The notes: a model not told the origin generated them from the sequence alone. DNA of 64,000 nt from Planctomycetota bacterium (GCA_036338595.1 JAYZBV010000072.1:1-64000), one strand, 5' to 3'. Shown: positions 16,031-33,412, counted from the stretch's first letter. A program made the numbers and translations.

Positions 16031-16165
16031 GGGCCATCCATCCAGGAGAATTGAGCTTTGCTGGGGGCCATCATACCCGGTCTGCAGTGGCTCCCAAAAC
16101 GCTCCTCGCAGCGGGATCGGGGCCCAATCGATGGTTATCGGAACCACAGAGGCTTTGCACTTTAC

Positions 16166-16177
16166 ACTTTATAAAGT
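16166..16177. promoter_or_regulatory. AT-rich perfect palindrome, candidate regulator or enhancer site
   Basis: ACTTTATAAAGT in an AT-rich patch of a 670-nt divergent intergenic region. Confidence 0.35.
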
Positions 16178-16335
16178 ATGTGTCAGGCTTCTGCCGGCCC
16201 CATGCCCGGGCTCTGTTTGCATGCGATCGCGAGTGCCTCATCGAGTGGCACTCGTTGCTCGATTGTGGATGAGACGGGCGTGAGGGGATGATCGAGATGG
16301 GGGATTCCAGCCAATCCGGGTCATTCCGGAGCATC

Positions 16336-16351
16336 TGGCATGAACCCTGCA
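16336..16351 (+). promoter_or_regulatory. Candidate sigma54 (-24/-12) promoter for the export operon
   Basis: TGGCATGAACCCTGCA has the GG-N10-GC spacing of the consensus TGGCACG-N4-TTGC(A/T). Confidence 0.4.
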
Positions 16352-16699
16352 CTGTCGATGTGATCGGGCCACTTCACCGGACTGTCCGGTGTCGCTGGAT
16401 CAGAGGGGAGAGCAGATGACACCTTCGACCCACGACCAGCGACCCTGCTCAAGTTTAATTTCGAGTCGAATCGGAATCTCGGGGACTGCAAATCTGTTCG
16501 CTGCGTTGGCACCGCAGCAGGAGTCGAGTTCGTGCAATCCAGTCCCGTCGCATGAAGAACAATTGGTGGGAAATTGGCGGTGCGCTGCAACTGCCGGTGG
16601 CAGTTGCTCATCCCAGGGGTGGAGTCGTTCACAACCAGCCTGTGGGCAAATCCAAGAGGTTGTGGCCCGGCAACCGGGCCAGGTCGGAAAGAGGGAGTC

Positions 16700-18637
16700 A
16701 TGGTGAATCAGGGTACGAGCCAGGGAATCGATGGTCCGCAACAGACCGGTGCTTCCATCGATCTGATCAAATTCTGGGATGAACTGGGATTTGGTGGGCG
16801 CGTCGGGGTGGGGGCGGCTCTCTTTTTCGTGGTCGCATTCATCTTCACTTCATCGATGAAGAACGATTGGATCGACATCCCTGTCGGCGATGTCGAACGC
16901 GACTTTGAACTCACCGAGATCCTCAAGGGCAAGCAGATCGATTTTCGCTTCAATGACGCGGGTGGCCTTCAGGTGCCGAGTATCCGCGCATCAGAGGTAT
17001 TTTCACTGCTTCACTCGAATACAGCGGCGGCTGATCAAGCGGATCCATTTGACTGGGTAGGTCAGTCTGGATCGCTGATCGACACTTCCAGGCAGCGAGA
17101 GCAGCGCTGGGAACGGTCGCAGATCGAGCAACTCGAGGAGGACCTTGCCCGCCTCGAGGGGGTCGACTCGGTGAGCGTGACACCCAATCGATCGATCGGA
17201 GCATCGGTGATTGCTTCGAGCCGCAAGATTACCGGTGTCAGCGTCCAGGTAGATCTCGATGCACAGCTGCGGCCCGCTGGACTCAGCCAGTCGATGGCGA
17301 TGTCGATTGCAATGCATGTTTCCGGGGCATACGGGGTTTCGACAGAGAAAGTCATCATCACGGATACCACCGGTCACTACTACGATCTCGACAATTCACA
17401 GGTGACAGCAGGGGATGTCGTGGAGAAGAAAAAAATCGTCGAACAGTATGTGGTTCGATACCTCTCGGCGATTTTTGATCCTGAGATGTTTCGTGTGGTC
17501 GTCGATGTGAGTCTGGCCAACCCGGTATTCGAGACGGTCGAGAAGTCAGGTTACATCCCGGGCAATAACCCGGTGGTGCCGGGTATCTACGATCTCCAGG
17601 AGCAGGTGGCTTCTTACTCACCAATTTCGGCACAGTTTGCGGACTCAGTGGTGACCAGAGCCACAGCTCAGCAGATTCCAGGCCGTACAGAAGCGGATCC
17701 CGCGATCGCAGGTGTTGAAGAGGTTGCGGTCACGGTGATGCTGGATCGTCAAGGCGCCATCGCCAGAGCCAGCGCCAACGGAGGCTACAGCCGCGGCACT
17801 GAAGCAGCCAGCGGGCAACGGAGCGTCGGGCAACTGCTGCGTGAGTTTACCGCCACGATCGTCGATGGCCTCACGTCTCACCTCAGGGTTCATGTCGGTA
17901 GCGATTCAGTGATCCAGGCCAGGGTGCTTCCCGTCAACTTCAAGGGTGTGCTCTCGACTGCTGAGCCGGTCAAGGTTCAGAGTCTGGCCAACGAAGAATT
18001 CGCAGGGTACCCCTTCTCCTTCTACTTCCTGCTAGGAGGGGGATTGCTGGCAGTATTCTGGATATTCCGCCATGGCCCCAGAGACTCGACTGTCGAGCCA
18101 GCGATAGCAGGGTTCGGTGCGGCGAGATTCGCCCAGGATCGGGTCCGAGAGAGTGTCAATACGATCTTCGAGGAGTGTGAAAGCTCCATCACCGAAAAAG
18201 CGATCGAGCAGATCCGTAGCCTCGATGTTCCCGAGTCAGTCGAGGTTCTTCGGCATGTCATCTCGCACGATGAGGGTGAACTACCGGGGTGCTCGGTGCT
18301 GGCACTACTGGTACTCGATCAATGCCCAGCCCGAGCCGAGATCTTCAATGCCATGAATCCGGAAGAGCTGTCGACACTGTCGGGGATGATCTGCGGAGTC
18401 GAAGCCATCCATCAAGAAATGATCGCAGATGCACTGGCAGTACTGGACCTCTTCCAGGGTGTACTGTCCGGCTCCAGTCCGACAACAGAAGTTCCCTCAG
18501 CCATCGATGTGATTCCGACTCAATTCGAAATCCAGCGATCCGTGATCGACGACATCAGATCCAATGATTCGAAACTGGCAGATCTGATCGAGGGAAATAG
18601 CAGCGGCTCCAGTTCAAGGGAGGTTCAATCGCCATGA
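16700..18637 (+). CDS. fliF: Divergent FliF (MS-ring) with a C-terminal extension resembling part of FliG
   Basis: Two TM segments flank a YscJ/FliF-like region (LEEDLARLEGVDSVSV...VSVQVDL...IAMHVSGAYGVSTEKVIITDTTG). The tail resembles FliG-N. It is the first gene before fliH/fliI, with a GAGGGAG RBS. Confidence 0.7.
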   Translation: MVNQGTSQGIDGPQQTGASIDLIKFWDELGFGGRVGVGAALFFVVAFIFTSSMKNDWIDIPVGDVERDFELTEILKGKQIDFRFNDAGGLQVPSIRASEVFSLLHSNTAAADQADPFDWVGQSGSLIDTSRQREQRWERSQIEQLEEDLARLEGVDSVSVTPNRSIGASVIASSRKITGVSVQVDLDAQLRPAGLSQSMAMSIAMHVSGAYGVSTEKVIITDTTGHYYDLDNSQVTAGDVVEKKKIVEQYVVRYLSAIFDPEMFRVVVDVSLANPVFETVEKSGYIPGNNPVVPGIYDLQEQVASYSPISAQFADSVVTRATAQQIPGRTEADPAIAGVEEVAVTVMLDRQGAIARASANGGYSRGTEAASGQRSVGQLLREFTATIVDGLTSHLRVHVGSDSVIQARVLPVNFKGVLSTAEPVKVQSLANEEFAGYPFSFYFLLGGGLLAVFWIFRHGPRDSTVEPAIAGFGAARFAQDRVRESVNTIFEECESSITEKAIEQIRSLDVPESVEVLRHVISHDEGELPGCSVLALLVLDQCPARAEIFNAMNPEELSTLSGMICGVEAIHQEMIADALAVLDLFQGVLSGSSPTTEVPSAIDVIPTQFEIQRSVIDDIRSNDSKLADLIEGNSSGSSSREVQSP

Positions 18638-19428
18638 ACGACGAAGTATTTTCGCCGACGGATGAGGGCCCAACCGAGATCTTGCAATCTGAAGTGGAGG
18701 CACGTCAGCGCCTGGAAGCACTACAAGTTGCCTACCAGCAACTGATGCAGAAACTGCTCGTCGATGGCCAGAAGTCCATCGCTGCCATCGAGTTGGCCAG
18801 GGAGTCTTCACTGGTAGCGCTCGAGAAGCACAAGAACGAGGCCAGGTCTTCAGGACTTGAACAAGGCCTGGAGGATGGTCGCAAGCAGGGCTTCGAAGCG
18901 GGCCATGCCGAGGGAATCCAGCTGGGACTCGAGGAAGGCCGCCGTGAATTTACACGGAGCGTCGAACAGAGGGCCTGTGAACTGGTTTCCCAGAACTGTG
19001 AAACATTGCCACAAACACTGGCGTCCGCCATCGAGGAGTTCTCCCGATGCTGGAAGGACACGATAGAAGAAACACGGCGTGACACCGTGAAGCTTGCCCG
19101 TGGAATCGCTCAGAGGGTCCTCCGTCGCGAGATCGAGGACTTGCCATCGGTTGTAGTGGAAAACATCGAGCTTGCCGTGCAGCGGATCGGTGATCGATGT
19201 CAGATCGTCATCGAGGTCAATCCCGCAGACCTCACAGCTGTAGTCCAGTTTCTTCCGCTTCTTGGACAGAAGTTTGAAGGTGCCGAGGGCGCAGAGGTGG
19301 TCGGGGTAGAGTCGATCTCACGCGGCGGTTGCCGAGTTCGCAGTCGCTCAGCGAGCGTGGATCTGACGATGGAAATGCAGTTGGATCTGATCGAATCGGC
19401 ACTGATCAAGGATTCCCAGGAGAGTTGA
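18634..19428 (+). CDS. fliH: FliH/SctL-family export ATPase regulator
   Basis: GxxxG repeats (GLEQGLEDGRKQGFEAGHAEG), IEVNPADL, ISRGGCRV; directly upstream of fliI. Confidence 0.9.
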   Translation: MNDEVFSPTDEGPTEILQSEVEARQRLEALQVAYQQLMQKLLVDGQKSIAAIELARESSLVALEKHKNEARSSGLEQGLEDGRKQGFEAGHAEGIQLGLEEGRREFTRSVEQRACELVSQNCETLPQTLASAIEEFSRCWKDTIEETRRDTVKLARGIAQRVLRREIEDLPSVVVENIELAVQRIGDRCQIVIEVNPADLTAVVQFLPLLGQKFEGAEGAEVVGVESISRGGCRVRSRSASVDLTMEMQLDLIESALIKDSQES

Positions 19429-20750
19429 TGAATTTCATCGATGCGCTCGAGTCACTGAATACGGGACAGATGGTGAGGGTGCGCGGCACCGTTGCTCGCG
19501 TTACAGGAGTGATCGTTGAGGCCCAGGGCCTGTCACTACCTGTGGGAGCTGAGTGCACCATCCGGACTCGAGAAGGTGATCTGGTGGTGGCAGAGGTGAT
19601 CGGGTTCTCCGGTGACAGGTGCCACTTGCTTCCCGAGTCGGGCATCTCAGGAATCGCTCCTCAAGATGTGGTGATTCACGATGGAGAAAAGCCCAGCGTC
19701 GAGGTCTCTCACCAGCTGCTCGGTCGCGTCATCGATGCAAGGGGGATCCCCATCGACGGAAAGGGACCCGTCCCCTGTGGCGAGAAGATGCCCATCCATG
19801 CGAAGCCAGTTCCAGCGCTTGAGCGTCAAAGAATTGACCGGGCAGTCCACACGGGTGTGCGCGCCTTTGATTCGATCCTGACTGTGGGAGTCGGTCAGCG
19901 CCTGGGGATCTTCTCGGGAAGTGGTGTCGGCAAATCTACGCTGCTTGGAATGATAGCAAGGAACACCGAACTCCCGATCAGGGTGATTGCTCTGGTCGGA
20001 GAACGAGGTCGAGAGGTCCGGGAGTTCATCGATAGAGACCTCGGTCCGGAAGGCCTTGCACGAAGTGTTGTCGTGGTAGCGACAGGAGATGAAGCCGCCG
20101 TGATGAGACTGAGGGCAGCCAAGGTTGCCACCTCCATCGCAGAGTGGTTCAGGGATCAGGGCGAAGATGTTCTGTTGCTGGTCGACTCCATCACCAGGGT
20201 CGCCCTCGCTCAGCGCGAGGTTGGCCTGTGCGCCGGGGAGCCTCCCACAACTCGCGGATACACACCCAGTGTCTTCGGGATGCTCCCACGGCTCCTCGAG
20301 CGAACTGGACCCGGCAAGGTCGGAAGCATCACTGCATTCTATTCCGTTCTTGTCGAAGGGGATGACCTGCACGATCCGATAGGGGATGCAGTAAGAGGGA
20401 TTCTAGATGGGCAGATCTGGTTGAGTAGAGATCTCGCAAATCGGGGCTGGTTCCCGCCTGTAGACCCATGTGCCAGCACCAGCAGGACGATGAACTCGGT
20501 GGTCGATCCTGACCATCTCACCGCTGCTCGCTCACTGGTTGAACTGGTGGCGACTTACCGTGAGATCGAGGACATGGTGCGTATCGGTGCGTATGTCCGC
20601 GGCCAGGATCAAAGATCGGACGCTGCACTCGATGCGATGCAATCGATCGAGGAACTGTTGCGTCAATTGCCTGCAGAGAAGAGTGAGTTCGAGCTCACCA
20701 GGAAGCGCCTGATCGATATCACCAGTAACTCCAGCTGGGAGGTTGCCTGA
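19428..20750 (+). CDS. fliI: FliI type III export ATPase
   Basis: GQRLGIFSGSGVGKSTLLGM, ALVGERGREV, LLLVDSITR, GEPPTTRGY, DAVRGILDG. ATG overlaps the fliH stop (TGATG). Confidence 0.97.
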   Translation: MNFIDALESLNTGQMVRVRGTVARVTGVIVEAQGLSLPVGAECTIRTREGDLVVAEVIGFSGDRCHLLPESGISGIAPQDVVIHDGEKPSVEVSHQLLGRVIDARGIPIDGKGPVPCGEKMPIHAKPVPALERQRIDRAVHTGVRAFDSILTVGVGQRLGIFSGSGVGKSTLLGMIARNTELPIRVIALVGERGREVREFIDRDLGPEGLARSVVVVATGDEAAVMRLRAAKVATSIAEWFRDQGEDVLLLVDSITRVALAQREVGLCAGEPPTTRGYTPSVFGMLPRLLERTGPGKVGSITAFYSVLVEGDDLHDPIGDAVRGILDGQIWLSRDLANRGWFPPVDPCASTSRTMNSVVDPDHLTAARSLVELVATYREIEDMVRIGAYVRGQDQRSDAALDAMQSIEELLRQLPAEKSEFELTRKRLIDITSNSSWEVA

Positions 20751-21208
20751 TGTCGACCGATGATTTCCGACTCGATGCGTTGCTCAGATTGCGAAAGAAG
20801 GAAGCTCATCTGCAACAGGAAAAACTGACCGCCTGCATCCAGAAACTGGAAGAGCAGCGCCAGGAAATGGGCAGAACTAACGAAAAGTACCACTCGGTCG
20901 TCACAGCCCTCCGCCAGGAGGATCAGGCCGGTGCAACACTCTCGGAACTGATGGTTCATCGCCGGTACCTCGAACGGATGAGAGATCTTGCGAAGGAACA
21001 GGGCGAACTCGCCGTTTCACTGGCAGCGGATCTGGAACAGGTCCGAGGTCATGTCGTCGAGGCCATCCGTCAATGTCGCGTGGTCGAAAAATTGAAAGAA
21101 CGGTTTGAAGAGCGGGAATCAGAGCGTGTCAAACGCAGCGAGCAGCGACTCGTCGATGCAGAGACCAGCGCTCGGATTGCGGCGGGGATCCAGGCGGAGT
21201 CAGCCTGA
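20750..21208 (+). CDS. fliJ: FliJ export chaperone / ATPase stalk
   Basis: FRLDALLRLR N-terminus, coiled coil, VVEKLKER...EQRLVD; 152 aa directly after fliI. Confidence 0.85.
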   Translation: MSTDDFRLDALLRLRKKEAHLQQEKLTACIQKLEEQRQEMGRTNEKYHSVVTALRQEDQAGATLSELMVHRRYLERMRDLAKEQGELAVSLAADLEQVRGHVVEAIRQCRVVEKLKERFEERESERVKRSEQRLVDAETSARIAAGIQAESA

Positions 21209-21264
21209 CAGGGCGTCGAATTCTGCTCAGTAGCGATGGGAATACAGTGGAAAGGAAACCAGCG

Positions 21265-21930
21265 ATGGCAAGTCTCGGGAGTCGAAGAAGAAATGAACTC
21301 CGCTGGGTGAGAACCGTGGTTCTGTTGGCAGTGCTGGTGATCGTTGTCACCACATTCATCGATGCGCAACAGTTTCCGGTCCCGGAAACAGCAACCAATG
21401 CTGAGGTGTCAGGAACTCCGGTGCCAGACGAGCGTTTTGCCAATGGAGGGGTCATTTCTGCCGCCAGTTCGGGCAGTACCTCGGGACCATGGAAAACACT
21501 TCAGGCACTCGGGGCGATTTTCGTCATCACAGGAGTGGGAATCGGTGGGTACTTCTTGATTCGAAAATTTGCGCCAGGAGCAATCCCGGGGACAGATGCC
21601 CGCATGAAGGTTCTGATGCGGATGCCCATCGGGAATCGCCAGAGCATCATCATTCTTCGGGTAGGTGACAGGGTGCTTGTTGTGGGCGCTTCCTCCGGCG
21701 GCATGAAGTGCCTCAGCGAGATCACCGATCAACATGAAGTTGAAAACCTCAGCTACGGTGTGGAGTTCTCACGGGAACGGAGAAAAGTAAACGAATTGGT
21801 AGATAGCGAGGAGCTCGGCGACTTTGTCGAGGACGATGAGAAAACCAGCGATGTGCAACATGAGATCGAGTGGCTTCGTGACCGCCTGGATGGTTACGGA
21901 GAAAAGGTCGAAGGAAAGGTGCGTACGTGA
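21265..21930 (+). CDS. fliO: FliO-like export-gate assembly protein
   Basis: TM helix then MKVLMRMPIGNRQSIIILRVGDRVLVVGASSGGMKCLSEI; directly before fliP. Start at 21247 or 21265. Confidence 0.8.
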   Translation: MASLGSRRRNELRWVRTVVLLAVLVIVVTTFIDAQQFPVPETATNAEVSGTPVPDERFANGGVISAASSGSTSGPWKTLQALGAIFVITGVGIGGYFLIRKFAPGAIPGTDARMKVLMRMPIGNRQSIIILRVGDRVLVVGASSGGMKCLSEITDQHEVENLSYGVEFSRERRKVNELVDSEELGDFVEDDEKTSDVQHEIEWLRDRLDGYGEKVEGKVRT

Positions 21931-22772
21931 TCAACGTTCGGCGCTCACTGATTTTGGGAGTCATCGTAGCGTTTGCGATATTGTTCATCGCAGCGCCTGT
22001 AGCGATGGCTAGCGCTGGTGATGGCGAAGCCGTAGGAATCATCGATCGAGTCCTGAGTGGATCTCCGGGGGATGTCGATGTTTCCATCAAACTGATCTTG
22101 CTGACAACAGTACTCGCGATCGCGCCGGCACTATTGATGCTGACGACCTGTTTTACTCGAATCATCGTGGTACTGGGCTTTGTCAGGCGAGCCATCGGCA
22201 CCCAGGATTCGCCACCCAACCAGGTCCTCGTGGGACTCTCCTTCCTGCTCACACTGGCAGTGATGGGGCCTGTCTGGAGCGATATTTACACCAATGCGAT
22301 CCAGCCCTATGCAGACCAGACTCCGATGCCGACCACCGGAGAGGTGCCCACCGGGGAAGAAGCGTACGCATACGCAGATTCAAAGATGCGTGAGTTCATG
22401 TACCACGCCATCGACGAGGGTGACCTGCTATTGATGGCCAGGGTAGGTGCAGCGAAGACGGTCGAGGAACAATACGAAGAAGACGGGATCATCAGCGCTG
22501 AATTTGTCGATTCATTACCAACCACGGTGATCATCCCGGCGTTTGTCCTCAGCGAGCTGAGGAGAGCCTTCGAGATGGGATTCATGATCTACATCCCGTT
22601 CGTCGTCATCGATCTCGTGGTCTCCGCATTACTGGTCTCGATGGGGATGCTGATGCTGCCTCCAGTGGTAGTTTCGCTCCCCTTCAAGGTGCTGGTCTTC
22701 GTGCTGGTGGACGGTTGGGGACTGGTAGTCGAGCAACTGTTGTTCTCCTCGATGGTGACGGTGACCGGATGA
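21927..22772 (+). CDS. fliP: FliP export gate subunit
   Basis: TTCFTRIIVVL, QDSPPNQVL, PAFVLSELRRAF, GMLMLPP, LPFKVLVFVLVDGW. Confidence 0.97.
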   Translation: MINVRRSLILGVIVAFAILFIAAPVAMASAGDGEAVGIIDRVLSGSPGDVDVSIKLILLTTVLAIAPALLMLTTCFTRIIVVLGFVRRAIGTQDSPPNQVLVGLSFLLTLAVMGPVWSDIYTNAIQPYADQTPMPTTGEVPTGEEAYAYADSKMREFMYHAIDEGDLLLMARVGAAKTVEEQYEEDGIISAEFVDSLPTTVIIPAFVLSELRRAFEMGFMIYIPFVVIDLVVSALLVSMGMLMLPPVVVSLPFKVLVFVLVDGWGLVVEQLLFSSMVTVTG

Positions 22773-23047
22773 CACGATTAGATGTAGCACTGGATTTCCT
22801 CCAGCAGGCGTTGCTCGTTGCACTGCAACTGTCGGTGCCAATATTGTTAGTGATGATGATTGTCGGAATTGCCGTGAGTCTCATCCAGGCGATGACACAT
22901 CTACAGGATCAAACTCTCACCTTTGTTCCGAAGATCCTTGCCGTCGCCGTCGCTCTGCTTCTGCTGATGCCACTGCTTCTGGGATGGGCGACCGAGTTCA
23001 CCAGGGAAATGATCCAGGCCTCCGCCGTCGCGCTGGGTGGGGGGTGA
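22769..23047 (+). CDS. fliQ: FliQ export gate subunit
   Basis: VSLIQAMTHLQDQTLTFVPKI; 92 aa; ATGA overlap with fliP. Confidence 0.95.
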   Translation: MTRLDVALDFLQQALLVALQLSVPILLVMMIVGIAVSLIQAMTHLQDQTLTFVPKILAVAVALLLLMPLLLGWATEFTREMIQASAVALGGG

Positions 23048-23053
23048 TCCAGG

Positions 23054-23887
23054 ATGGCTGAGCTGTTCGAATACTCCACATCCTCATGGGCCGGTTGGTT
23101 TCTCGTCTTCACGAGGATCTCGGGAGCGATGATGGTGCTTCCCATCTTTTCTTCTCGCACGATTCCGGCGCGGATCAAGGCTGCGATTGCGGCGCTGATC
23201 GCGCTCTGCGTGGCACCACTGGCCATCGCAGATCCATCAGGAACCGGCACGAGGCAGATGGGAGAGTTGATGGCGACGCCGCTGGCTGGCGCTGTCTCCA
23301 TCTGTGGTGAACTGGCTCTTGGCTGGGTCCTGGGCGCCACTGCAGCGGTGTTGATGTGGGGAGCACACCTCGGGGGGCAGTTGATCGGACAGGATTCCGG
23401 GCTGGCATTTGGTCAGGTGGTCGATCCCACGACCGGGCAAGCGACGGCTCCGACGGCGAACTTGATGATGATTTTCGCAGGACTTGCTTTTCTGGCACTG
23501 GAAGGTCATCGGCTGGTGATCCTGGCGCTGTGCGGCTCCTTCGATGCCGTTCCTCCCGGATCCATCGGCAATATCCTGATACACGGGGTTCCCCTCACCA
23601 CGGCTGCTCAGATCACGAGCGAACTCGGCTCGCAAACCTGGATGCTCGGACTGCAAATCGCTTTTCCGGCCAGTATTGCGCTGCTGGTGACGACCGTGGG
23701 TCTCGGTTTGATGGCCCGGATGATTCCCGAGATGAATGTCTTTGCGGTCGGCTTTGCAGTTCGTACAGGGGTTGGAATGCTAGCCCTCTTCATGACACTT
23801 CCCTTCATCGCGGATCTATTTGGTGCTGTCGTCGCGACGGGCCTCCAGGGATCGCAGATGATCCTCAGTGGACTCGGGGGGAACTGA
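23054..23887 (+). CDS. fliR: FliR export gate subunit
   Basis: FTRISG..MVLPIF, GELALG, GGQLIGQDSGLAF..VVDP, ARMIPEMNVF. Confidence 0.95.
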   Translation: MAELFEYSTSSWAGWFLVFTRISGAMMVLPIFSSRTIPARIKAAIAALIALCVAPLAIADPSGTGTRQMGELMATPLAGAVSICGELALGWVLGATAAVLMWGAHLGGQLIGQDSGLAFGQVVDPTTGQATAPTANLMMIFAGLAFLALEGHRLVILALCGSFDAVPPGSIGNILIHGVPLTTAAQITSELGSQTWMLGLQIAFPASIALLVTTVGLGLMARMIPEMNVFAVGFAVRTGVGMLALFMTLPFIADLFGAVVATGLQGSQMILSGLGGN

Positions 23888-23900
23888 AGTGATCTTCCAG

Positions 23901-24728
23901 ATGACTGACCACGGTGAGAAAACCGAGGCCCCAACGCGCAAGCGATTGGAATCTGCACGACTGGAGGGTCGGGTAGCACTGAGCAGTGATCTGGTCGGAT
24001 CCTTCGTGCTGACGTCTGGTTTCGGATTCTTGCTTTTCTTCTCCGGGAGCATCTTTGCAGCGATCTTCTCGGGGACCCGAGCATCTCTGGGATCCATCGG
24101 GAGCATCCGACTCAACGAGCAGGCAAGCCTACAGTTGCTGACAGATGCGGTGGAACATTCCCTCGTCATCCTGTTGCCGATACTGCTGACGATATTTGCC
24201 GTGGCGGCGGTGGTGACATGGTTGCAGGTAGGCCTACGCATCCGGACAGGGGAGGTGTTGCCGGATCTGACCAGAGTCGATCCGATTCGAGCACTGATGA
24301 ACATCCTCGGCCTGGGTGGACTGCGGCGAGTGGGAATGGGAGTGCTGAAGTTGATTGCCGTCGGAATCGTGCTTGTTCCGGGCATCTGGGGCTTGATGGG
24401 CGACTCCGAAGTGATCCGCAGTGCAGCGGTGGTGGCAGGCGGTGGATCACTGGCTGCGATCGGCACGAAAGTGGTCGAGTTGATCCTGCAGGCATGTGGC
24501 GCCCTGCTGATCGTTTCTGCAGTGGATTGGGCCTTCAGGCGTTGGGCCTACCAGAGATCCCTGATGATGAGCCGGAGAGAAGTGGAGGACGAGAAGAGAG
24601 AACTGACAGGCGATCCTCATCTGAGGCGAAGACGCAAGCAGCGTCACCGGCAAATCCTGGAGAAACGGGGTCCGGAGTTCACCGACGAGACGTCACTCCA
24701 CAGCGGATCGAGAGGCGACACCCGATGA
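23901..24728 (+). CDS. flhB: FlhB export protein lacking the NPTH autocleavage / C-terminal switch domain (275 aa)
   Basis: EKTEAPTRKRLESARLEGRV, RVDPI, LMMSRREVEDEKRELTGDPH; stops before any NPTH motif; stop overlaps the flhA ATG. Confidence 0.9.
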   Translation: MTDHGEKTEAPTRKRLESARLEGRVALSSDLVGSFVLTSGFGFLLFFSGSIFAAIFSGTRASLGSIGSIRLNEQASLQLLTDAVEHSLVILLPILLTIFAVAAVVTWLQVGLRIRTGEVLPDLTRVDPIRALMNILGLGGLRRVGMGVLKLIAVGIVLVPGIWGLMGDSEVIRSAAVVAGGGSLAAIGTKVVELILQACGALLIVSAVDWAFRRWAYQRSLMMSRREVEDEKRELTGDPHLRRRRKQRHRQILEKRGPEFTDETSLHSGSRGDTR

Positions 24729-26890
24729 ACGAGCACCAGATGCACACACTGACGCCAGTCTCCGGCTGGAAAGATACCATCCGCAGGAACCGGGATCTCG
24801 CCGTCGTGCTGGCGCTTGCGGGGATCCTCATCGCCATCCTTGTGCCCCTACCCGGTCGATTGATGGACGGGCTGCTCGGCGCGAACATCGGCTTATCAGT
24901 GCTGATCCTGCTCACGGTGGTTTATCTCCGCAAGCCGCTGGAGTTTGCTTCCTTTCCCTCATTACTGCTGCTGGCAACGCTGTACCGTCTCGCCCTCAAC
25001 ATTGCCACGACTCGATTGGTTCTCAGTCGTGCAGGAGACGAAGGGGTAACGGCTGCTGGAGATGTAGTGCACTTCTTCGGTGAGTTTGTTTCGGGTTCCA
25101 ATTTGATCGTCGGTTTCATCATCTTCTCGATTCTCGTGGTGATCCAATTTGTCGTCGTGACCAAAGGTGCAACGCGTATTGCAGAGGTGGCTGCTCGATT
25201 CACGCTCGACAGGATGCCCGGCGCTCAGATGGCCATCGATGCCGATCTCAATGCAGGGAACATCTCGGGCAAGGAGGCGAGCACAGCAAGGGAGCAACTC
25301 GCCGAACAGGCTGATTTCTACGGGGCGATGGATGGAGCCAGCAAGTTTGTTCGCGGAGATGCCATCGCCGGGATCATCATCACGATCATCAATATCGTTG
25401 GTGGATTCACCATCGGAGTCCTTCAGTACGGGATGACCTTTGCTGAAGCGGGACGGGTGTTCACGACGTTGACCATCGGAGATGGCCTGGTCACTCAGAT
25501 TCCCGCACTCTTTATCAGCGTCGCTGCCGGGTTGATGGTCACCAGAGCATCGACGAGGGGCCAGATCGGGGACGCCGTCGTCGGACAGTTGTTCGGCAAC
25601 CCGAGGGCGCTGGCGATCACGGCCCTGGTTCTTGTGGCTCTCGCCTTCACCGGTTTGCCTCCTGTTGTTCTTGGTGTCCTTGCCGTATCGCTGGCGACTG
25701 TGGCCTACTTGTCGCGTAAACCGAGGCGTGCGCCGGTCAGTACAGGGGCAGCAGTGGCGATGCCCTCACTCCCCGGGGGCGTTGAGACGGCAGAAGACTC
25801 CGGACAGGGGACCACGACCAGCGCCCGCCGGATCGAGTTCTCGGGCCAGCAACCGATTCGCATCGAACTTGGCTACAGTCTTCAAAGTCTTCTCGAGCCC
25901 GAATCGTCAGGAGTGGCTCTCAGTGTCCGGGTTCAGAAACTGAGAGAAGATCTTCAGAAAGAACTTGGATTCTGGATTCCCCCTGTGCATGCCAAGGTGC
26001 AGATCCGGGGGATTCCGAGGCAAGAGTTCAGCATCCAGCTCAGAGAGATTCCCTGTTCGCGTGGTGTGCTGAGAGCGAGGCAGGCACTCATCGTTTCAGA
26101 TCACCGTCGCTCGATCGATGGAATATCAGGAGACGCTGCTGAACTGGAGATTCTTGAGGCTCCTGCAAGGTGGATATCGCTCGATGAGGGCGAGATGCGA
26201 AAGTCACTCGGGTACCGAGTACTCACTGCGCAAGATGCGCTGATTCTTCACCTTCGCAGCGTGATCATGGAGCATATTCAGGAGCTTCTGACGCAGAAGG
26301 AAACTCGCAGGATCCTTGACCGAGTCGGCGAGGAGTGCCGAACTCTGGTGGACGAAGTGGTCCCTGAACTGCTGCGTGTCGGAGAGATACAGAAAATTCT
26401 CCAGTCGTTACTCGCAGAGGGAGTTTCGATCCGGGATATGGAGAAGATCCTCGAAACGCTGGGCGAGGAGGTCCAGCAGCGACCTGAATCGCGCAAGGAT
26501 CTCACTGCATTGGCGGAGACGGTGCGAGCATCTCTCGGACGCAGCATCTGTGCTCAATATCTGGATCCGCAGGGCAAGTTGCATGTCGTCACCCTGGATC
26601 CACAGATAGAGAGCGTTCTGCTGGAAGATCTGGCACCTGCCGAGCACGCCGAGAATGCCCCGTGCCTGTCACCACAGCAGCATGAGTCCGTGATGGAGGC
26701 GCTCGTCATGGCGGTGGCCCAGCTGGTTGAGAGTGACCATCCTGCTGTCATCCTCACCTCGCGCCAGCTGCGAATTCCGATCAAGAAGCTGCTGGAGAAG
26801 GAAGTGCCCACGGTGGCGGTCCTCTCCTACAATGAAGTCGGCCACGGGACCACCGTGGAATCTGGGGGGATGGCGAGAATCGTTGCCTGA
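24725..26890 (+). CDS. flhA: FlhA export gate / platform protein
   Basis: FPSLLLLATLYRLALN, KGATRIAEVAARFTLD, DFYGAMDGASKFVRGDA, IGDGLVTQIP, EGVSIRD, VLSYNE. Confidence 0.97.
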   Translation: MNEHQMHTLTPVSGWKDTIRRNRDLAVVLALAGILIAILVPLPGRLMDGLLGANIGLSVLILLTVVYLRKPLEFASFPSLLLLATLYRLALNIATTRLVLSRAGDEGVTAAGDVVHFFGEFVSGSNLIVGFIIFSILVVIQFVVVTKGATRIAEVAARFTLDRMPGAQMAIDADLNAGNISGKEASTAREQLAEQADFYGAMDGASKFVRGDAIAGIIITIINIVGGFTIGVLQYGMTFAEAGRVFTTLTIGDGLVTQIPALFISVAAGLMVTRASTRGQIGDAVVGQLFGNPRALAITALVLVALAFTGLPPVVLGVLAVSLATVAYLSRKPRRAPVSTGAAVAMPSLPGGVETAEDSGQGTTTSARRIEFSGQQPIRIELGYSLQSLLEPESSGVALSVRVQKLREDLQKELGFWIPPVHAKVQIRGIPRQEFSIQLREIPCSRGVLRARQALIVSDHRRSIDGISGDAAELEILEAPARWISLDEGEMRKSLGYRVLTAQDALILHLRSVIMEHIQELLTQKETRRILDRVGEECRTLVDEVVPELLRVGEIQKILQSLLAEGVSIRDMEKILETLGEEVQQRPESRKDLTALAETVRASLGRSICAQYLDPQGKLHVVTLDPQIESVLLEDLAPAEHAENAPCLSPQQHESVMEALVMAVAQLVESDHPAVILTSRQLRIPIKKLLEKEVPTVAVLSYNEVGHGTTVESGGMARIVA

Positions 26891-26933
26891 CTTACCGAGT
26901 CAGTTGGCGAGTTCCTCGCGGGGAAAGGGGAGC

Positions 26934-28373
26934 GTGCTCTTGAATGAGCCAACAGTACCCGGTGACGCGGGGCACACCCGCGTCGTAGCACCGGATTACG
27001 CATCTGCAGTTCGCATTCTTCAGGATCGATTCGGAAGTGATTGGACGGTGGTCCATTCACGGAAGGTTCGAAGGCCTGGATTTCTGGGATTGTTCGGCGT
27101 TTCTGATGTGGTCGTGATCGTCCGCACCGAGGAATCGATGCTGTTCCAGCCTCAGGCAAATCCCGTCGTCTCCTCCAGTGGGAAACTGGCGCCACTGGCA
27201 ATAGATGCGGGTCAGTTTGATGTCCCGGTATCGATCCCTGACCTCGTGCCGGTCATGGCAGGCAATTTCGAGCCGAGCAATGAAGCGGGGGATCTTGTGT
27301 ATCGCCTCGAAGATGCTCGCAGTCGGATCGCCGATGAGTTGAAGGCATATTCCAAATCGATGTCAGGACAATCGTCCACTACCGCATGGGAATCAGCGCA
27401 GCAGCGAACTGATGTGGAATCACTCCCGATCGAAGCTGAGCAACCTGGGGTTGCGACGCAGCTGAACACCGAATGCGATGATGTCCTGGATGGGAATGCG
27501 GATCCGATCGAGCCAGGGGGTGCAGAAAATCTGATCGACATGCACATCTCACAGGGTGAGCACCAGGATGTGGAGCCAGCGTTTCTCGGAGCAATATTGA
27601 CTCATTGTGATGTGGCTGGATTTCCTCCTGCGGCAGTGAAGATGATAGTGGAGCAGGTCTGCGCCGATCCGATTGACGAAAGCCACGGCCCCGGGGATTA
27701 CCAGCAGATCGCCAGGGAGAGGATAATTCGCTGCATCCAGGCGAGAATCCCTGACACGGTGCAGATCGCAGCGGGTTCGGTCGGACTGCCGAGAGTGGTG
27801 GCTCTGGTCGGTCCCACAGGTGTCGGAAAGACCACGACGCTGGCGAAACTGGCGGCACACTTTCATCTGGTCGAGAAGAGGAGAGTCGGTCTCGTGACTC
27901 TCGATTGCTACAGAATCGGAGCCATCGAGCAGCTACGCCGATTCGCCGAGATACTGGGCCTGCCTCTCAAAACAGTTTCCGAGGCAGCAGGCGCAGCCGA
28001 GGCGATCGAGGGCTTCTCCGATTGCGATGTGATTCTGGTGGATACAGCTGGCCGTAGTCAACGCGACCAGGAGCGCCTCACCGAGGTGCGGGATTCTCTC
28101 GCAAACATCGGGGACGTCGAAGTACATCTCTGCCTGTCACTCGCTGCATCGCCGGAGGCGATCGTCGCTGCTGCGGAATCGTTCCGGATGGTCAAGTACG
28201 ACCGTGTCATCTTCACCAAGAAGGATGAGTCGTATCGAAAGGGGTTCCTCTGGGATCTGTTCGGCGTGACTCCGGTTCCAGTCTCCTATGTCACCTGTGG
28301 GCAAGAGGTACCCGAGGATATTCAGCCGGCAACCAGGGAACTGATCTGTGAAATGATGATCCAGGGAAGATGA
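26934..28373 (+). CDS. flhF: FlhF SRP-family GTPase
   Basis: N-terminal ...RKVRRPGFLGLFG; GPTGVGKTTTLAKLAA, DCYRIGAIEQL, DTAGRS, TKKDE, GQEVPEDI. GTG 26934 follows GGGGAG. Confidence 0.93.
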   Translation: MLLNEPTVPGDAGHTRVVAPDYASAVRILQDRFGSDWTVVHSRKVRRPGFLGLFGVSDVVVIVRTEESMLFQPQANPVVSSSGKLAPLAIDAGQFDVPVSIPDLVPVMAGNFEPSNEAGDLVYRLEDARSRIADELKAYSKSMSGQSSTTAWESAQQRTDVESLPIEAEQPGVATQLNTECDDVLDGNADPIEPGGAENLIDMHISQGEHQDVEPAFLGAILTHCDVAGFPPAAVKMIVEQVCADPIDESHGPGDYQQIARERIIRCIQARIPDTVQIAAGSVGLPRVVALVGPTGVGKTTTLAKLAAHFHLVEKRRVGLVTLDCYRIGAIEQLRRFAEILGLPLKTVSEAAGAAEAIEGFSDCDVILVDTAGRSQRDQERLTEVRDSLANIGDVEVHLCLSLAASPEAIVAAAESFRMVKYDRVIFTKKDESYRKGFLWDLFGVTPVPVSYVTCGQEVPEDIQPATRELICEMMIQGR

Positions 28374-29254
28374 GAGACCAGGCCTGGCGACTTCGAAAGA
28401 TGGTAGAAGAAAAGGTGTTCCCTGTCAGGGGGAGGGCCAGGGTGCTGGCAGTGACCAGTGGCAAGGGTGGTGTCGGAAAGACCAACATCTCGGTCGGGCT
28501 TGCCATCGCCGCGGCAGCCTCTGGAATCCGCACCGTGCTGCTCGATGGCGATCTTGGTCTGGCCAATATCGATGTACTTCTCGATCTCCATCCCAGAAAG
28601 CACCTGGGTCATCTGATCGATGGAGAGGCAACTCTCGAAGATGTGCTGATCGACTCACCCGGAGGAATCCAGGTACTACCTGGTGCCAGTGGTCTGACCA
28701 GGGTTGCAGATCTTGGAAATGTTCAGAAACAGCGACTGCTCGAAGCGGTGGCGAGACTGGTGGAAGAATTCGACCTGGTCCTGATCGATACGGGTGCTGG
28801 GATTTCTCGCGCAGTGCTCGATCTTTGCATATGTGCGGGAGAGGTGTTGGTGGTGACGACACCGGAACCAACAGCTGTCGTCGATGCCTATGCGATGCTG
28901 AAGGTGTTTTCGGTCGAGGAGTCTACCCCAAAGCAATGGCTGGTGGTCAATCAGGTCCTTTCTCGGGGTGAAGCTCAACAGGTTTCCAGTCGCATGATCA
29001 GTCTTGCTCAGCAATTTCTGGGTGTTGAGGTGAACGGTTGTGGTTCGGTATTGCTCGATCCGCGTGTCAGGGCATCGGTTCGCAGGAGACAGCATTTCTC
29101 TCTCGCCTATCCTTCCTGTCCTGCTGCCAAGGGGGTCAAGGAAGTGGCTCATATTCTCGGTCTGGCGGGGCGAGCAGGGAGCCGTGGTTTCATGAATCGT
29201 CTAAAAGAGATGTGGATCGGGGATCTGAGCAGGCCCCGGGAGCGTTCTCTTTGA
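28370..29254 (+). CDS. flhG: FlhG/FleN MinD-like ATPase
   Basis: DQAWRLR (FlhF-activating DQAxxLR motif), SGKGGVGKT, DGDLGLAN, DTGAG, TPEPT. Confidence 0.93.
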   Translation: MRDQAWRLRKMVEEKVFPVRGRARVLAVTSGKGGVGKTNISVGLAIAAAASGIRTVLLDGDLGLANIDVLLDLHPRKHLGHLIDGEATLEDVLIDSPGGIQVLPGASGLTRVADLGNVQKQRLLEAVARLVEEFDLVLIDTGAGISRAVLDLCICAGEVLVVTTPEPTAVVDAYAMLKVFSVEESTPKQWLVVNQVLSRGEAQQVSSRMISLAQQFLGVEVNGCGSVLLDPRVRASVRRRQHFSLAYPSCPAAKGVKEVAHILGLAGRAGSRGFMNRLKEMWIGDLSRPRERSL

Positions 29255-29291
29255 GGGCCAGTTGCTCGAGTTGTGCGGATTCTCGAGAGCG

Positions 29292-29306
29292 TGGCACGGA
29301 AGATGC
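29292..29306 (+). promoter_or_regulatory. Candidate sigma54 promoter upstream of fliA
   Basis: TGGCACGGAAGATGC, one mismatch to TGGCACG-N4-TTGC, in the flhG-fliA gap. Confidence 0.45.
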
Positions 29307-29427
29307 CGTTGACTGCGGGGACCTGGCACGCTGGCGGATGATCGTCGGATTCAGACGTGATCCCCTGGAGACGACACGAAGGGTCCTGTTAGGCTAACGG
29401 CAAGAAACTCAGGAAGAGGAGACTCAA

Positions 29428-30273
29428 TTGGCGCAGATCGAGTCGGAAGAGACACGGAAAACTATTCCTGCAAACGATTCCCTGGTCGGAAAGACCCGGA
29501 TGCAGGATGACCCGGAACTTGAGCAGGTATGGATCGAGTTCAAGGAATCCCAGAGTAATGAACTCAAGAACAATCTCCTGGAGAGGTATCTGCACATCGT
29601 TCGATACACTGCAGACCGTCTTCACATGAAGTTACCTCAACAGGTTGATGTAGAAGATCTGTACAGTGCGGGTTTGTTCGGCCTGATGGATGCGATCGAC
29701 AACTACGATCTGACTCGCGGAGTTAAATTCGAGTCCTACTGCTCGACCCGGGTTCGCGGCTCGATTCTGGACTCACTTCGAAAGATGGACTGGGTTCCTC
29801 GCCTGGTTCGCTCAACGGCCAACCGGATCGATGCAGCCTGGAAACAGTTCCAGAACGAGACGGGAAGAGAACCCACCGACTTCGAGATGGCTGAGCAACT
29901 GGGAGTGACCGACGAGGAATTCGAATCGATGCAGCGAGAAGCATCTGCGGCTTCCATCGTCTCGATCTCGGAACAGATTTCTGACGAAGGGGAGTCCAGG
30001 TCACTGAGAAAAATCGATATCCTCAATGACAAGAAGGCCAAGTCTCCCGACGAAGATTCTCTCAGAACTGCGATCAAAGAGTTCATCTATGATCAACTGG
30101 ATTATCGTGAGCAGGCGATCATCGAGGGCTACTACTTCCAGGGGAAGACGATGAAGTGCATCGGATTGAAACTCCATCTGTCAGAATCAAGAGTTTGTCA
30201 GCTTCACTCGCGGATCATGAGTCGATTGCGCCAGACCTGCGACAAGCACCGACTCGACTTCATGCAGGATTGA
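29428..30273 (+). CDS. fliA: FliA/WhiG-family sigma factor (sigma28)
   Basis: DLYSAGLFGLMDAIDNYD, KFESYC, RGSILDSLRKMDWVPR, LSESRVCQLH; AGGAGG RBS before TTG. Confidence 0.95.
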   Translation: MAQIESEETRKTIPANDSLVGKTRMQDDPELEQVWIEFKESQSNELKNNLLERYLHIVRYTADRLHMKLPQQVDVEDLYSAGLFGLMDAIDNYDLTRGVKFESYCSTRVRGSILDSLRKMDWVPRLVRSTANRIDAAWKQFQNETGREPTDFEMAEQLGVTDEEFESMQREASAASIVSISEQISDEGESRSLRKIDILNDKKAKSPDEDSLRTAIKEFIYDQLDYREQAIIEGYYFQGKTMKCIGLKLHLSESRVCQLHSRIMSRLRQTCDKHRLDFMQD

Positions 30274-30314: not shown

Positions 30315-32084
30315 ATGAGCAACTCCGACCAGAGACCCACGGAACAACCGACGCCATCGGGCACCAAGCAACCCCTGCCGAGATGGGTGTTTCTTGTCGC
30401 AGTGTTGCTCGCTTCCCTCGCAGCATCCCAGTTCCTGATCCGTAGCTGGGCGCTGGTCGGATTCCCCCAGGAGATCCGCTACGGCGAGGCGGTCGTGCTC
30501 GATCAGGCACGCAGGGTGATGGCTGAGCCAGGCCTCTACCCCGAGATGGGCAAGGAGCCGTGGCTTCTCGACCAGTACGCACCCTTCTATCCATTTCTGG
30601 CTCACCTCACCGGAAAATTCGCCTCGTCACCCTTCGGTGGGGGGCGAGCCATCTCGTTGCTGGCGACTCTCCTCTCCGCCGTGATGCTGACGCTGATCGT
30701 GCGCAGATCATCGGGCCTGGCAGCTGGACTCCTCTGTGGGGCAGCGATGCTGACGATGATGGAGTTTCTTCGCTTCGGGTTCTTGATGAGGGTCGATCCC
30801 CTCGCATTGTCGCTGGCGATGGTCGGAGTCTGGTGCAACCTGCAGCAGAAAACACCGGTGAGAATCCTCGGCGCGGCGGCTTTCTTTATTGCCGTCTATA
30901 CCCGCCAGACGACGGTGGCACTACTTCTGGTGAGTTACATTCAGATGTGGCGGCAGGAGGGCCGAGGGGCGCTCCGTTGGCCCTTCTCATTGCTTGCGGT
31001 GGGGCTGCTCTTCTATGGTTTTCTTGTGGCGGCCACCGACGGTGCATTTCATCAGCACGCCGTGATGTCGAATCTGTTTCGCTTCGAGTGGGCAGAGGGA
31101 CTGAAGAAAGCATTTTCTGGTTTCATGCCCTGGAGAGCACCACTCTTCATCGGCATCTTCCTGGCATTGATCCCCGGCCCTGAATCGGGAGGAACCCGAT
31201 CTGGAAGGCCCCGCACCATCGGATTCCTGGCGATGGGACTGGCGCTGGGGTGCTGTGTCCCGGCGCTGAAGCAGTTCCTGGTGCCTGGCAGCGATCCGAC
31301 CGTGCTCCACTGGATCCTGTACGGACATGTTGTGCTGCTTGCCTATGCCGCCTGGATCACCATTCGCAGCGACGTCGGCAAGCTGGATGGCAGCAAGATC
31401 GATGGAATCCGGATCCTGATGGCTCTCGCATCGATGACCTTGATCGGGCGCATCGGTTCCGACCTGAACTACCTGTTCGAGGCGGGGATCCTGATGCTGC
31501 TGGTATGTGGAGAAGCGATGGGAAGGGTGGTACCACGGCGGGCTCTGATCATCTCATCGTTGCTGGCGATCCAGGTGCTGGGCGGTTTCTATCTCAGTGG
31601 TCTGCAGCTGGAGTTTCAGCCGGAGCGATTGCTGGAGATGAAGGAGCGCCATCGCATCACCGATCATCTCGAAGCGTATCCCGACCCGGTCCTCAGCGAG
31701 GAGCCATGGGCACTGGCACAAACTGGAAGACCTCTGGTGCTGGGGCCCTACACCGCAAGACAGATGTACGACATAGGCTTGTGGGACGGCAAGGACCTGA
31801 TCGCAGCTCTCGATGCCCAGAGATATTCCGCCATCGTTCGTGCCAAGCAGAGAAGCTGGGCAGGTGTGGAGCGTGACGAAAGTGGACATGTCATCATCGC
31901 TGCGGACGGACTGCCGGTGCCGTACTTTGGCCCCTGGACCTTCAACTCGGTCAGGTCGTTACCACAGGAGATCCAGCAAGCGATCGAGAGGAACTATCAG
32001 CAAGCACCGGGGACCACCATGATCGAGAGGGTGACGAAGTACTTTCTCGAAGGAAGAGAGATCTGGGTACCGATCCCTCGCTGA
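30315..32084 (+). CDS. Polytopic membrane protein, probable GT-C-fold (ArnT/PMT-like) glycosyltransferase
   Basis: YGE in the first loop, YAPFYP, GRAISLL, RVDPLAL, YTRQT; many TM segments and a soluble C-terminal domain. Confidence 0.55.
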   Translation: MSNSDQRPTEQPTPSGTKQPLPRWVFLVAVLLASLAASQFLIRSWALVGFPQEIRYGEAVVLDQARRVMAEPGLYPEMGKEPWLLDQYAPFYPFLAHLTGKFASSPFGGGRAISLLATLLSAVMLTLIVRRSSGLAAGLLCGAAMLTMMEFLRFGFLMRVDPLALSLAMVGVWCNLQQKTPVRILGAAAFFIAVYTRQTTVALLLVSYIQMWRQEGRGALRWPFSLLAVGLLFYGFLVAATDGAFHQHAVMSNLFRFEWAEGLKKAFSGFMPWRAPLFIGIFLALIPGPESGGTRSGRPRTIGFLAMGLALGCCVPALKQFLVPGSDPTVLHWILYGHVVLLAYAAWITIRSDVGKLDGSKIDGIRILMALASMTLIGRIGSDLNYLFEAGILMLLVCGEAMGRVVPRRALIISSLLAIQVLGGFYLSGLQLEFQPERLLEMKERHRITDHLEAYPDPVLSEEPWALAQTGRPLVLGPYTARQMYDIGLWDGKDLIAALDAQRYSAIVRAKQRSWAGVERDESGHVIIAADGLPVPYFGPWTFNSVRSLPQEIQQAIERNYQQAPGTTMIERVTKYFLEGREIWVPIPR

Positions 32085-32238: not shown

Positions 32239-32303
32239 GACGGACCTGAGAGTGTCCCAATTCATGCACGCGGGATCAAGTTGCTCGGTGATGTTACCGG
32301 AGA

Positions 32304-33356: not shown

Positions 33357-33412
33357 TGGTGCTGCTCCTTCCCGGTTGAGGGAGGATCACACCACATGAG
33401 GATGCCGTCAAG

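Follow-up and report, generated by a model that had tools for sequence, protein, structure and literature searches.

A conserved planctomycete operon for what may be a flagellum-derived type III exporter without a flagellum

Bacteria that keep flagellar export genes without a flagellum are already known, Lysobacter, Buchnera and Chlamydia among them. Rod and hook genes persist in Buchnera, and Chlamydia has only three flagellar genes, alongside an injectisome. Here we describe a 13-gene, flagellum-derived locus at positions 16700-30273 (plus strand) of a 64,000-nucleotide stretch of DNA from a Planctomycetota bacterium (GCA_036338595.1, JAYZBV010000072.1:1-64000). This stretch is referred to below as the window and corresponds to contig C72 of a 2.9-Mb assembly in 114 contigs (88.3% complete, 7.2% contamination). 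The locus differs from the remnants in Buchnera and Chlamydia in having a complete gate together with ATPase, placement and sigma-factor genes, no axial part and no injectisome. Flagellar remnants are reported for the non-motile Buchnera (PMC3459982), and retention of FliI, FlhA and FliF for Chlamydia (PMC2830194).

Salmonella provides a laboratory counterpart. A stop at codon 258 of flhB, or the deletion 270-383, combined with the loss of Fluke, makes late secretion constitutive, and FlgM-Bla is then released into the periplasm independently of the rod-hook genes and of FliK, and the model proposed there treats the FlhB C-domain as a dock for early substrates and a lock on the early mode (PMC13344023, mBio 2026). 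In the planctomycete, FlhB breaks off at this domain boundary too. However, the Salmonella alleles are described in that report as overexpressed laboratory mutants of a flagellated species, whereas the planctomycete truncation is natural, conserved and recurrent, and it goes together with the disappearance of FliE, rod, C ring, FlgM and the docking triad of FlhA. The locus is a natural counterpart of the 2026 result: here it was evolution that removed the FlhB C-domain, after loss of the rod.

Non-flagellated Lysobacter enzymogenes OH11 retains working flhA, flhB, fliI, fliP, fliQ and fliR in a new role (PMC7277350). It shares with our locus the retention of export genes without a flagellum, but belongs to another phylum, its output is type IV pilus twitching, and the consulted part of that paper describes no trimming of FlhB or FliG domains. 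Abby and Rocha (2012; PMC3459982) proposed a secretin-less, Myxococcales-type system as the initial stage on the way from flagellum to injectisome; there too motility parts are lost and protein translocation is argued for, but the system has injectisome-type features, whereas the planctomycete genes are flagellar and include FliO, FlhF, FlhG and FliA. In Bacillus subtilis, FliO, FliP, FliQ, FliR, FlhB and FlhA (the CORE) were described as a nanotube platform (PMC6456723). The same six membrane components occur in our locus, but the Bacillus CORE occurs beside a working flagellum and its FlhB is full length, unlike in the planctomycete. The planctomycete system was not found in the openly searchable full-text literature, which leaves subscription journals and supplements outside. 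Likewise not found in print was its anatomy: an FlhB whose C-domain was naturally and recurrently deleted, FliF fused to FliG_N, an altered docking pocket in FlhA, the loss of FlgM, purifying selection and distribution over a whole marine clade.

On balance, we read the locus as a conserved, selected operon for a flagellum-derived type III export apparatus that lacks the parts needed to build or turn a flagellum, a rod-less exporter fixed in the late mode. Its genes are as follows.

16700..18637, plus strand: FliF, 645 residues, protein of the membrane/supramembrane (MS) ring with C-terminal FliG_N fusion (Pfam YscJ_FliF 8.7e-12)
18634..19428, plus strand: FliH (Pfam FliH 1e-16; ATGA overlap with fliF)
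19428..20750, plus strand: FliI ATPase (ATP-synt_ab 6.9e-80, T3SS_ATPase_C 2.2e-20; start at Met34 of an open reading frame (ORF) that opens at 19329)
20750..21208, plus strand: FliJ (Pfam 1.6e-05, 25.5 bits, below the 28.4 cut-off)
21247..21930, plus strand: FliO (Pfam FliO 5.3e-11)
21927..22772, plus strand: FliP (Pfam FliP 2.3e-70; dN/dS, the ratio of nonsynonymous to synonymous substitution rates, 0.044)
22769..23047, plus strand: FliQ (Bac_export_3 5.9e-23; start at the ATG overlapping the fliP stop)
23054..23887, plus strand: FliR (Bac_export_1 8.6e-56)
23868..24728, plus strand: FlhB, membrane domain and linker only (Bac_export_2 1.7e-49; start GTG 23868 or ATG 23901)
24725..26890, plus strand: FlhA, full length, 721 residues (FHIPEP 4.1e-219)
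26832..28373, plus strand: FlhF, GTPase of the signal recognition particle (SRP) type (SRP54 4.4e-39; start uncertain, ORF opens at 26727 within flhA)
28370..29254, plus strand: FlhG, MinD/ParA-type ATPase (Pfam ParA/MinD type 1.1e-13)
29428..30273, plus strand: FliA, sigma-28-type sigma factor (Pfam sigma-70 regions 2, 3 and 4)

By ORF listing and Pfam the 13 genes are consecutive and uninterrupted, and 7 of the 12 junctions between them are 4- or 1-base overlaps (ATGA, GTGA, TGATG). The start codons of FliI, FliQ, FlhB and FlhF carry an uncertainty of up to 35 codons. FliP, FliQ, FliR and FlhA, the core of the type III secretion system that flagella use, all score above their Pfam cut-offs and are encoded together with FliF. 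The FliH-FliI-FliJ ATPase complex is likewise present; FliJ lies below its cut-off in the window, and its orthologue in genus g7 reaches 39.5 bits, above it. FliI keeps the motifs GSGVGKS, VLLLVDSITR and GERGRE, the first of which we take to be Walker A and all of which we take to be catalytic. The seven FlhG orthologues aligned have an N-terminal DQAW(R/K)LR and a C-terminal GFLxRLK that are invariant or nearly so, presumably corresponding to the DQAxxLR activator motif and an amphipathic helix. Within the locus nothing matched fliE, flgB-L, fliK, fliL, fliM/N, motAB or flagellin in Pfam. An initial annotation, made from the sequence alone, had described 13 intact, largely coupled genes without frameshifts and with just these absences, and it was correct in every item that was checked.

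That annotation had left it to the rest of the genome to decide whether the missing flagellar parts are supplied elsewhere; they are not. The whole-genome Pfam search yielded no Flg_bb_rod, Flagellin_N, FliG_C, FliMN_C, FliE, FliM, FliS or FlgN match. FlgM was also without a Pfam match, and when six planctomycete FlgMs were made into a profile, its top hit, on contig C25, had an E of 0.097. Two MotA_ExbB matches were considered as MotA stators and rejected, as both precede ExbD genes and belong to ExbB-ExbD pairs. We then compared the genome with 43 ORFs from the three flagellar loci of G010, a relative with a full flagellar operon. FliF, FliH, FliI, FliP, FliR, FlhB, FlhA, FlhF, FlhG and FliA were the sole flagellar genes matched, all of them on the contig of the window, and the FlhB match covers residues 6-246 of 369. 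Identities to the G010 flagellar-operon proteins are 36% for FlhF, 52-53% for FlhG and 57% for FliA. Other contigs gave only a sigma-54 activator, the F-type ATPase, SRP/MinD paralogues and two non-flagellar ORFs. The query set did not contain the FliG of G010, and the absence of FliG rests on Pfam.

The same absences hold among relatives. Our comparison set comprised 61 genomes (that of the window and 60 relatives), with FlhA in 58, rod in 16, flagellin in 15 and FliG_C in 26. In the family of the window, f1, the four genomes of genera g2, g3 and g6 have the full flagellar set. The 23 genomes of genera g1 (nine, including the window), g5 (six) and g7 (eight) all have FlhA and the FliI C-domain, and rod, flagellin, FliG_C, FliN, FliE and FlgM each have a Pfam match in 0/23; 15 of these genomes are at least 90% complete. 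The axial parts that a complete flagellum would need (FliE, rod/hook, flagellin) are thus absent both from the genome of the window and from this clade of 23, with models that are positive in 15-18 of the 61 genomes and in control genomes. Rotor, switch and MotAB stator are represented by the N-domain of FliG alone, fused to FliF. As to an injectisome, FlhA groups with flagellar FlhAs of related planctomycetes, and none of the five secretin genes of the genome lies on the contig of the window; needle and translocon families were not searched for. The signalling domain of methyl-accepting chemotaxis proteins has no match in the 23 genomes, but several flagellated relatives are without it too, so that it is uninformative on motility.

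The gene order shows how the locus came about. The G010 operon runs from a sigma-54 activator through FliF, FliG, FliH and FliI, FliK, FlgE, MotA, MotB and FliN to FliO/P/Q/R, and continues with FlhB (369 residues), FlhA, FlhF, FlhG and FliA. FliK, FlgE, MotA, MotB and FliN stand there between fliI and fliO, whereas in the window fliJ abuts fliO. As the G010 operon is full and the order in the window is the same, the window operon corresponds to the ancestral one with blocks and domains cut out, and reduction is read from gene order as having occurred in place from a full flagellar operon. Ten further loci from g1, g5 and g7 have the same 13 genes in the same order with the same flanking genes, at protein identities from 98% down to 24-28%, the lowest being those of FlhB and FliF. 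All 13 genes are intact in 11/11 loci from the three genera.

One of the cuts concerns FlhB. The protein of the window covers positions 1-243 of the 335 of the Bac_export_2 profile, and lacks both the NPTH motif and the C-terminal domain; its stop codon lies about 36 residues past the GDPxxRRRR linker. The short flhB of the initial annotation is in agreement with this, and also with alignment to the full-length FlhB of relatives. The start of flhA lies 4 bases ahead of the flhB stop, so a frame-shifted C-domain would have no space here, and Pfam detected neither a free-standing nor a second FlhB piece in the whole genome, the protein of the window being the sole match. In 39 of the 61 genomes, FlhB does not extend beyond profile position 250 (two of them cut by contig ends), and rod matches are absent from all 39; of the rod-positive genomes, 13 have a match to the FlhB N-terminus, and every one of these carries all 335 positions. 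The C-domain is retained in two g5 genomes, G020 and G024. NPTH is gone in all four of the rod-less genomes with a C-domain that were examined (SPGR, NPSE, AGPS and AGDL in its place; G010 has NPTH). In a tree of FlhA and the FlhB N-part, G024 is sister to G018, which has lost the C-domain (96% in the Shimodaira-Hasegawa-like approximate likelihood-ratio test), and this placement implies that the C-domain was deleted repeatedly inside family f1, at least three and probably four times. At least one further loss would have to be added in another reduced group, families f6 and f7, if that group is independent. The intermediates fit an order of loss in which the rod went first, then NPTH and then the whole C-domain, as for a domain that was of no more use, and was possibly inhibitory, after the early substrates had disappeared; the order cannot separate an adaptive removal from neutral loss. 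Free-standing genes of about 100 codons resembling the FlhB C-domain (profile positions 260-335) occur in ten genomes (G009, G010, G016, G028-G033 and G047), all of which have rod matches; none was found among the rod-less genomes.

Another cut concerns FliG. The last 195 residues of FliF follow the second membrane helix and, as a single sequence, have no Pfam match. A profile of this tail from seven genomes matches FliG residues 3-70 (chain 8umx_B, E 2.2e-4), which bears out the fliF::fliG' fusion proposed at the outset. Alignment with the unfused FliF of relatives places the FliF C-helix directly before the FliG_N-like part, and the latter is followed by a conserved 50-residue tail at the C-terminus. 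The fusion is found in 11/11 reduced family-f1 loci that were fetched, with a dN/dS of the tail of 0.09-0.27. In an AlphaFold2 model of FliF from a 7-row alignment (mean predicted local distance difference test score 58.6), domains similar to ring-building motifs are discernible and the segment where a beta-collar would be expected (residues 275-330) is of low confidence; by alignment this segment is about 20 residues shorter than in G010, and G011 has a large deletion there. A complex prediction of the FliF tail (195 residues, 7-row alignment) with FliH residues 1-130 scored 0.00, which counts neither way.

FlhA is full length, with residues 31-706 aligning with the solved FlhA 36hw_A2. Its membrane motif MPGxQxxID, which presumably includes the aspartate equivalent to D208, is retained in 35/35 FlhAs. 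The residues equivalent to D456, F459 and T490 of Salmonella FlhA, which we take to form the chaperone-docking pocket, behave differently. The acidic-F-T triad is present in 16/16 flagellated or intermediate genomes, and in none of the 19 reduced ones are all three residues found together; the T490 equivalent is replaced in 19/19, and the triad of the window reads L, L, L. The GYXLI motif is GYSLQ in the window. The dN/dS is 0.11 for the membrane part and 0.13-0.23 for the cytoplasmic part. The changed pocket, together with the missing FliS, FlgN and FlgM, suggests that any cargo would not be the classical chaperoned filament proteins. In the closed 9.2-Mb genome of the other reduced group, G045 (G045:C1:334896-337489), two adjacent extra genes match the cytoplasmic half of FHIPEP only (320-655), besides a full FlhA.

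Selection acts on the whole operon. By pairwise Nei-Gojobori comparison of the window with its closest relative G004 (dS 0.12-0.44), dN/dS ranges from 0.04 (FliP) to 0.26 (FlhF) over 14 genes, from FliF to X589, the gene following fliA; the flanking genes gave 0.10, 0.19 and 0.37. FliI has a value of 0.064, FliA of 0.03-0.12, and FliP, FliQ and FliR, the most conserved of the operon, of 0.04-0.13. More distant pairs gave similar values wherever dS was unsaturated. Contigs from three other metagenome studies carry no frame-breaking change except one compensated pair: a single contig, of depth 2.7, has a deletion and, seven bases away, an insertion. Nearly identical forms of the locus occur in 7 studies of seawater or marine metagenomes, in a total of 19 DNA runs. 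The Lysobacter-type combination of intact gate and ATPase genes under selection in a genome without flagellin is found here, and the pseudogenization that the initial annotation had named as the sign of decay is not seen, either in dN/dS or in the orthologues of the 10 other loci.

Reduced forms also exist outside the clade of the window. G011 (genus g4) and the three genomes of genus g14 are rod-less and have FliE and a full-length FlhB; G011 additionally keeps FliN and FlgM. The 18 genomes of families f6 and f7 have no rod, flagellin or FliE and a truncated FlhB, with FlgM in 17/18; full FliG and FliN persist in family f7 and in some of f6, and a protein with HEAT repeats follows fliA in both families. 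One genome of this group is closed (9.2 Mb) and another is in 4 contigs, from which we infer that cultured strains probably exist. Genus g16 (L020-L022, L038) shows a further arrangement, with FliF, a free 224-residue FliG N-domain, FliO/P/Q/R, a truncated FlhB, FlhA, FlhF, FlhG, FliA and FlgM. Its locus has no FliH, FliI or FliJ, and the FliI C-domain was matched in 0/10 genomes.

Both an FlhA tree (35 rows, LG+G4) and an FlhA/FlhB-N tree (37 rows, C20 with posterior mean site frequencies (PMSF), as a quick PMSF search) follow the family labels. The reduced f1 clade (100%, stem 0.68-0.87 changes per site) is sister to G011 and nested in flagellated f1/f2, and f6 and f7 together make up a clade of their own (100%). 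Both reduced groups are on long branches. The approximately unbiased (AU) test did not reject a tree with all reduced genomes together, either for FlhA under LG+G4 (19 rows versus 16; p 0.129) or for FlhA plus the FlhB N-part under C20 PMSF (21 versus 16; p 0.085). The architectures of the two groups differ, with a FliF-FliG_N fusion and no FlgM in f1 and separate FliG, FliN and FlgM in f6/f7. Reduction in place in family f1 is favoured by this difference and by X589, which follows fliA in flagellated f2 genomes and was not found in f6/f7.

The retained engine probably serves another job now, most likely the export of proteins across the inner membrane. What is kept comprises an MS ring of FliF-FliG_N; a gate of FliP, FliQ and FliR with the assembly factor FliO, FlhA and the FlhB membrane domain; FliH/I/J as the ATPase complex; FlhF/FlhG as the pair for polar placement; and the sigma-28 factor FliA. 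The kept parts are those predicted to form, energise and place the gate and to link it to the sigma factor, and the lost ones are those that would extend, turn or switch it. The complex would still assemble, probably at a pole, and its export would draw on FliI and the proton-motive force. As FliPQR is topped by neither FliE nor a rod, cargo would be released into the periplasm, and with no FlhB C-domain the machine would be permanently in the late mode; the late-mode reading is drawn from the planctomycete FlhB stopping at the boundary of the C-domain-less Salmonella alleles. The initial annotation had argued for functionally coherent losses down to the domain level, and the trimming is indeed domain-precise and recurs in other lineages. 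It had also preferred a repurposed export machine over random decay. This interpretation is supported, as neither of the two refuting conditions that it named came true; the secretion or appendage role itself is a proposal. Similarly, 'distinct from flagellum and injectisome' holds as a description of gene content and not as that of a demonstrated machine. The locus would replicate, independently of the known case, the first step of the accepted scenario from flagellum to secretion system, in which motility is lost and export kept.

Several points weigh against the interpretation as a late-mode exporter. In Salmonella, deletion of the FlhB C-domain had to be combined with overexpression and with Fluke loss to be effective (PMC13344023), so a truncated FlhB is not automatically active. 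The obvious late substrate, FlgM, is missing from the clade (0/23 by Pfam), and our own profile did no better than the E of 0.097 given above. The sigma-28 consensus (TAAA-N14-16-GCCGATA and looser versions) occurs 0-4 times in the genome of the window, against 0-20 in shuffles, and is not enriched. RNA evidence consists of 8 short contigs from one oligo-dT library that may contain DNA, and is too weak to claim transcription; the contigs fall on fliJ/O, fliP, flhB, flhA (three), flhG and selD. With no FliI match in g16, there is at least one reduced form that can do without the ATPase. The changed FlhA triad could equally mean that the cytoplasmic ring docks nothing any more. Finally, the free trees favour separate origins for the two reduced groups but do not prove them.

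A bolder version goes further and is put forward tentatively. According to it, Planctomycetes have made, probably more than once, a third kind of type III machine, which would be rod-less, polar and permanently late, with non-flagellar periplasmic cargo and with the loss of the FlhB C-domain as an adaptive unlocking. If true, it would represent a living replicate of the proposed first step to injectisomes. The planctomycete periplasm is unusually large, and the cargo, if found, may reveal a new protein route into it.

It is possible, although we consider it doubtful, that the complex persists because of some role outside export, as a polar landmark or scaffold, as a controller of another envelope machine, which has been proposed for type IV pili in Lysobacter, or as an ion-conducting module. 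The strict conservation of FlhF, FlhG and their regulatory motifs, the lost docking triad of FlhA and the five secretin genes of other systems in the genome would all suit such a role, and twitching of Lysobacter enzymogenes requires FlhA, FlhB, FliI and FliR, but not FliP or FliQ (PMC7277350). In our locus, however, FliP, FliQ and FliR are the very genes with the strongest conservation, FliH, FliJ and a FliI with its catalytic motifs are kept in 23/23 genomes, and gate and ATPase parts have no known role besides the passage of proteins through the gate.

Less probable still, and in our view unlikely, is a gate that works as a sensor: it would export an anti-sigma factor in replacement of FlgM and turn FliA on after assembly, with the FliA regulon as the output. 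The strong constraint on FliA speaks for this circuit, as does the other reduced group, where FlgM accompanies FliA and the gate in 17 of the 18 genomes; in Salmonella, FlgM is a late substrate that leaves via FlhB without its C-domain (PMC13344023). The clade of the window, however, has no FlgM by Pfam or by the six-FlgM profile, and no sigma-28-type promoter set was detected in the genome of the window.

It is highly improbable that the locus serves membrane nanotubes as their platform, the role claimed for the CORE of Bacillus. All six CORE components are present, FlhB in truncated form, but the sequence is silent on nanotubes, and FliF, FliH/I/J, FlhF/G and FliA lie outside the CORE model. 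The Bacillus claim itself is contested.

We give as little credit to a relic that is being lost and has no current function. Parts of the system do decay, as NPTH was lost ahead of the FlhB C-domain and the docking triad of FlhA drifts, and the reduced clade has a long stem branch. The relic reading is largely refuted already by a dN/dS far below 1 throughout, by 13 genes that stay intact in 11/11 loci of three genera despite identities down to 24-28%, and by the contigs of other studies, where the one compensated pair in a low-depth contig is the only frame-breaking change.

Least probable of all is a normal flagellum whose other genes are unassembled or too divergent for detection: the incompleteness and contamination of the assembly and the scattering of the relatives' flagellar genes over several loci would allow for it, but the same absences recur in all 23 genomes, including the 15 that are at least 90% complete, Pfam models detected the missing genes in all flagellated relatives, and the deletions are visible in the operon itself (fliJ abutting fliO, FliG cut to its N-domain, FlhB cut).

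Upstream of the operon we identified one putative regulatory element.

16336..16351, plus strand: sigma-54-type -24/-12 element TGGCATGAACCCTGCA, 364 bases upstream of fliF

The pattern TGGCAYG-N4-YTGC occurs at aligned positions upstream of fliF in 3/3 g1 and 2/2 g7 loci, and in 0/6 g5 loci. The genome contains rpoN, and the element is inferred to be a candidate promoter of fliF. A 126-codon minus-strand ORF at 16321-16701 was rejected as spurious, as it has a match in the closest genome only and overlaps the promoter region. For sigma-28, a planctomycete motif was sought in upstream regions of nine flagellin genes that have their own 5' leader (out of 19 fetched plus two from L032); they share no common dyad, and only G040 shows a site, TAAG-N16-GCCGATAC. 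The flagellin 5' regions of L048, L050, L052, L054, L055, L057, L059 and L063 have in common a hairpin with a GGA loop, CCGTCTAAGGACAGACGG, and AAATCAAGGAGGATTTC at the ribosome site. A CsrA gene lies directly upstream of one G010 flagellin. Bacillus flagellin is under CsrA control, and the flagellin leaders of the flagellated relatives look like candidates for the same kind of control.

The surroundings of the operon contain the following further features.

14782-14871: tRNA-Ser
30315..32084, plus strand: X589, polytopic membrane protein, 42 bases after fliA (membership in the system not implied)
32141-32238, minus strand: tRNA-Sec, within a selenocysteine gene island
32304-33074 (table-11 ORF), minus strand: SelD-like gene with an in-frame TGA read as U in the motif CAGU-ASK
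33413-34822, minus strand: SelA, within the same island

X589 has no Pfam match and no match to a solved structure. Its mean column identity is 64% in seven genomes, and it is present in 23/23 reduced f1 genomes. It also stands downstream of fliA in flagellated family-f2 genomes, on contigs with flhA, and is therefore an ancestral neighbour that is not specific to the reduced system. The selenocysteine gene island follows right after the locus (32141-34822, minus strand). On the other side, a 33-base element at 16155-16187, TTTGCACTTTACACTTTATAAAG.ATGTGTCA, lies directly upstream of a divergent CNNM/CBS-domain gene; six genomes from three genera show it almost unchanged, although the rest of the intergenic region cannot be aligned, and it probably serves that gene as promoter or leader. 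At the tRNA-Ser, metagenome contigs accumulate and break off, with a depth of up to about 1500 and many loose ends, as expected of a sequence common to many organisms.

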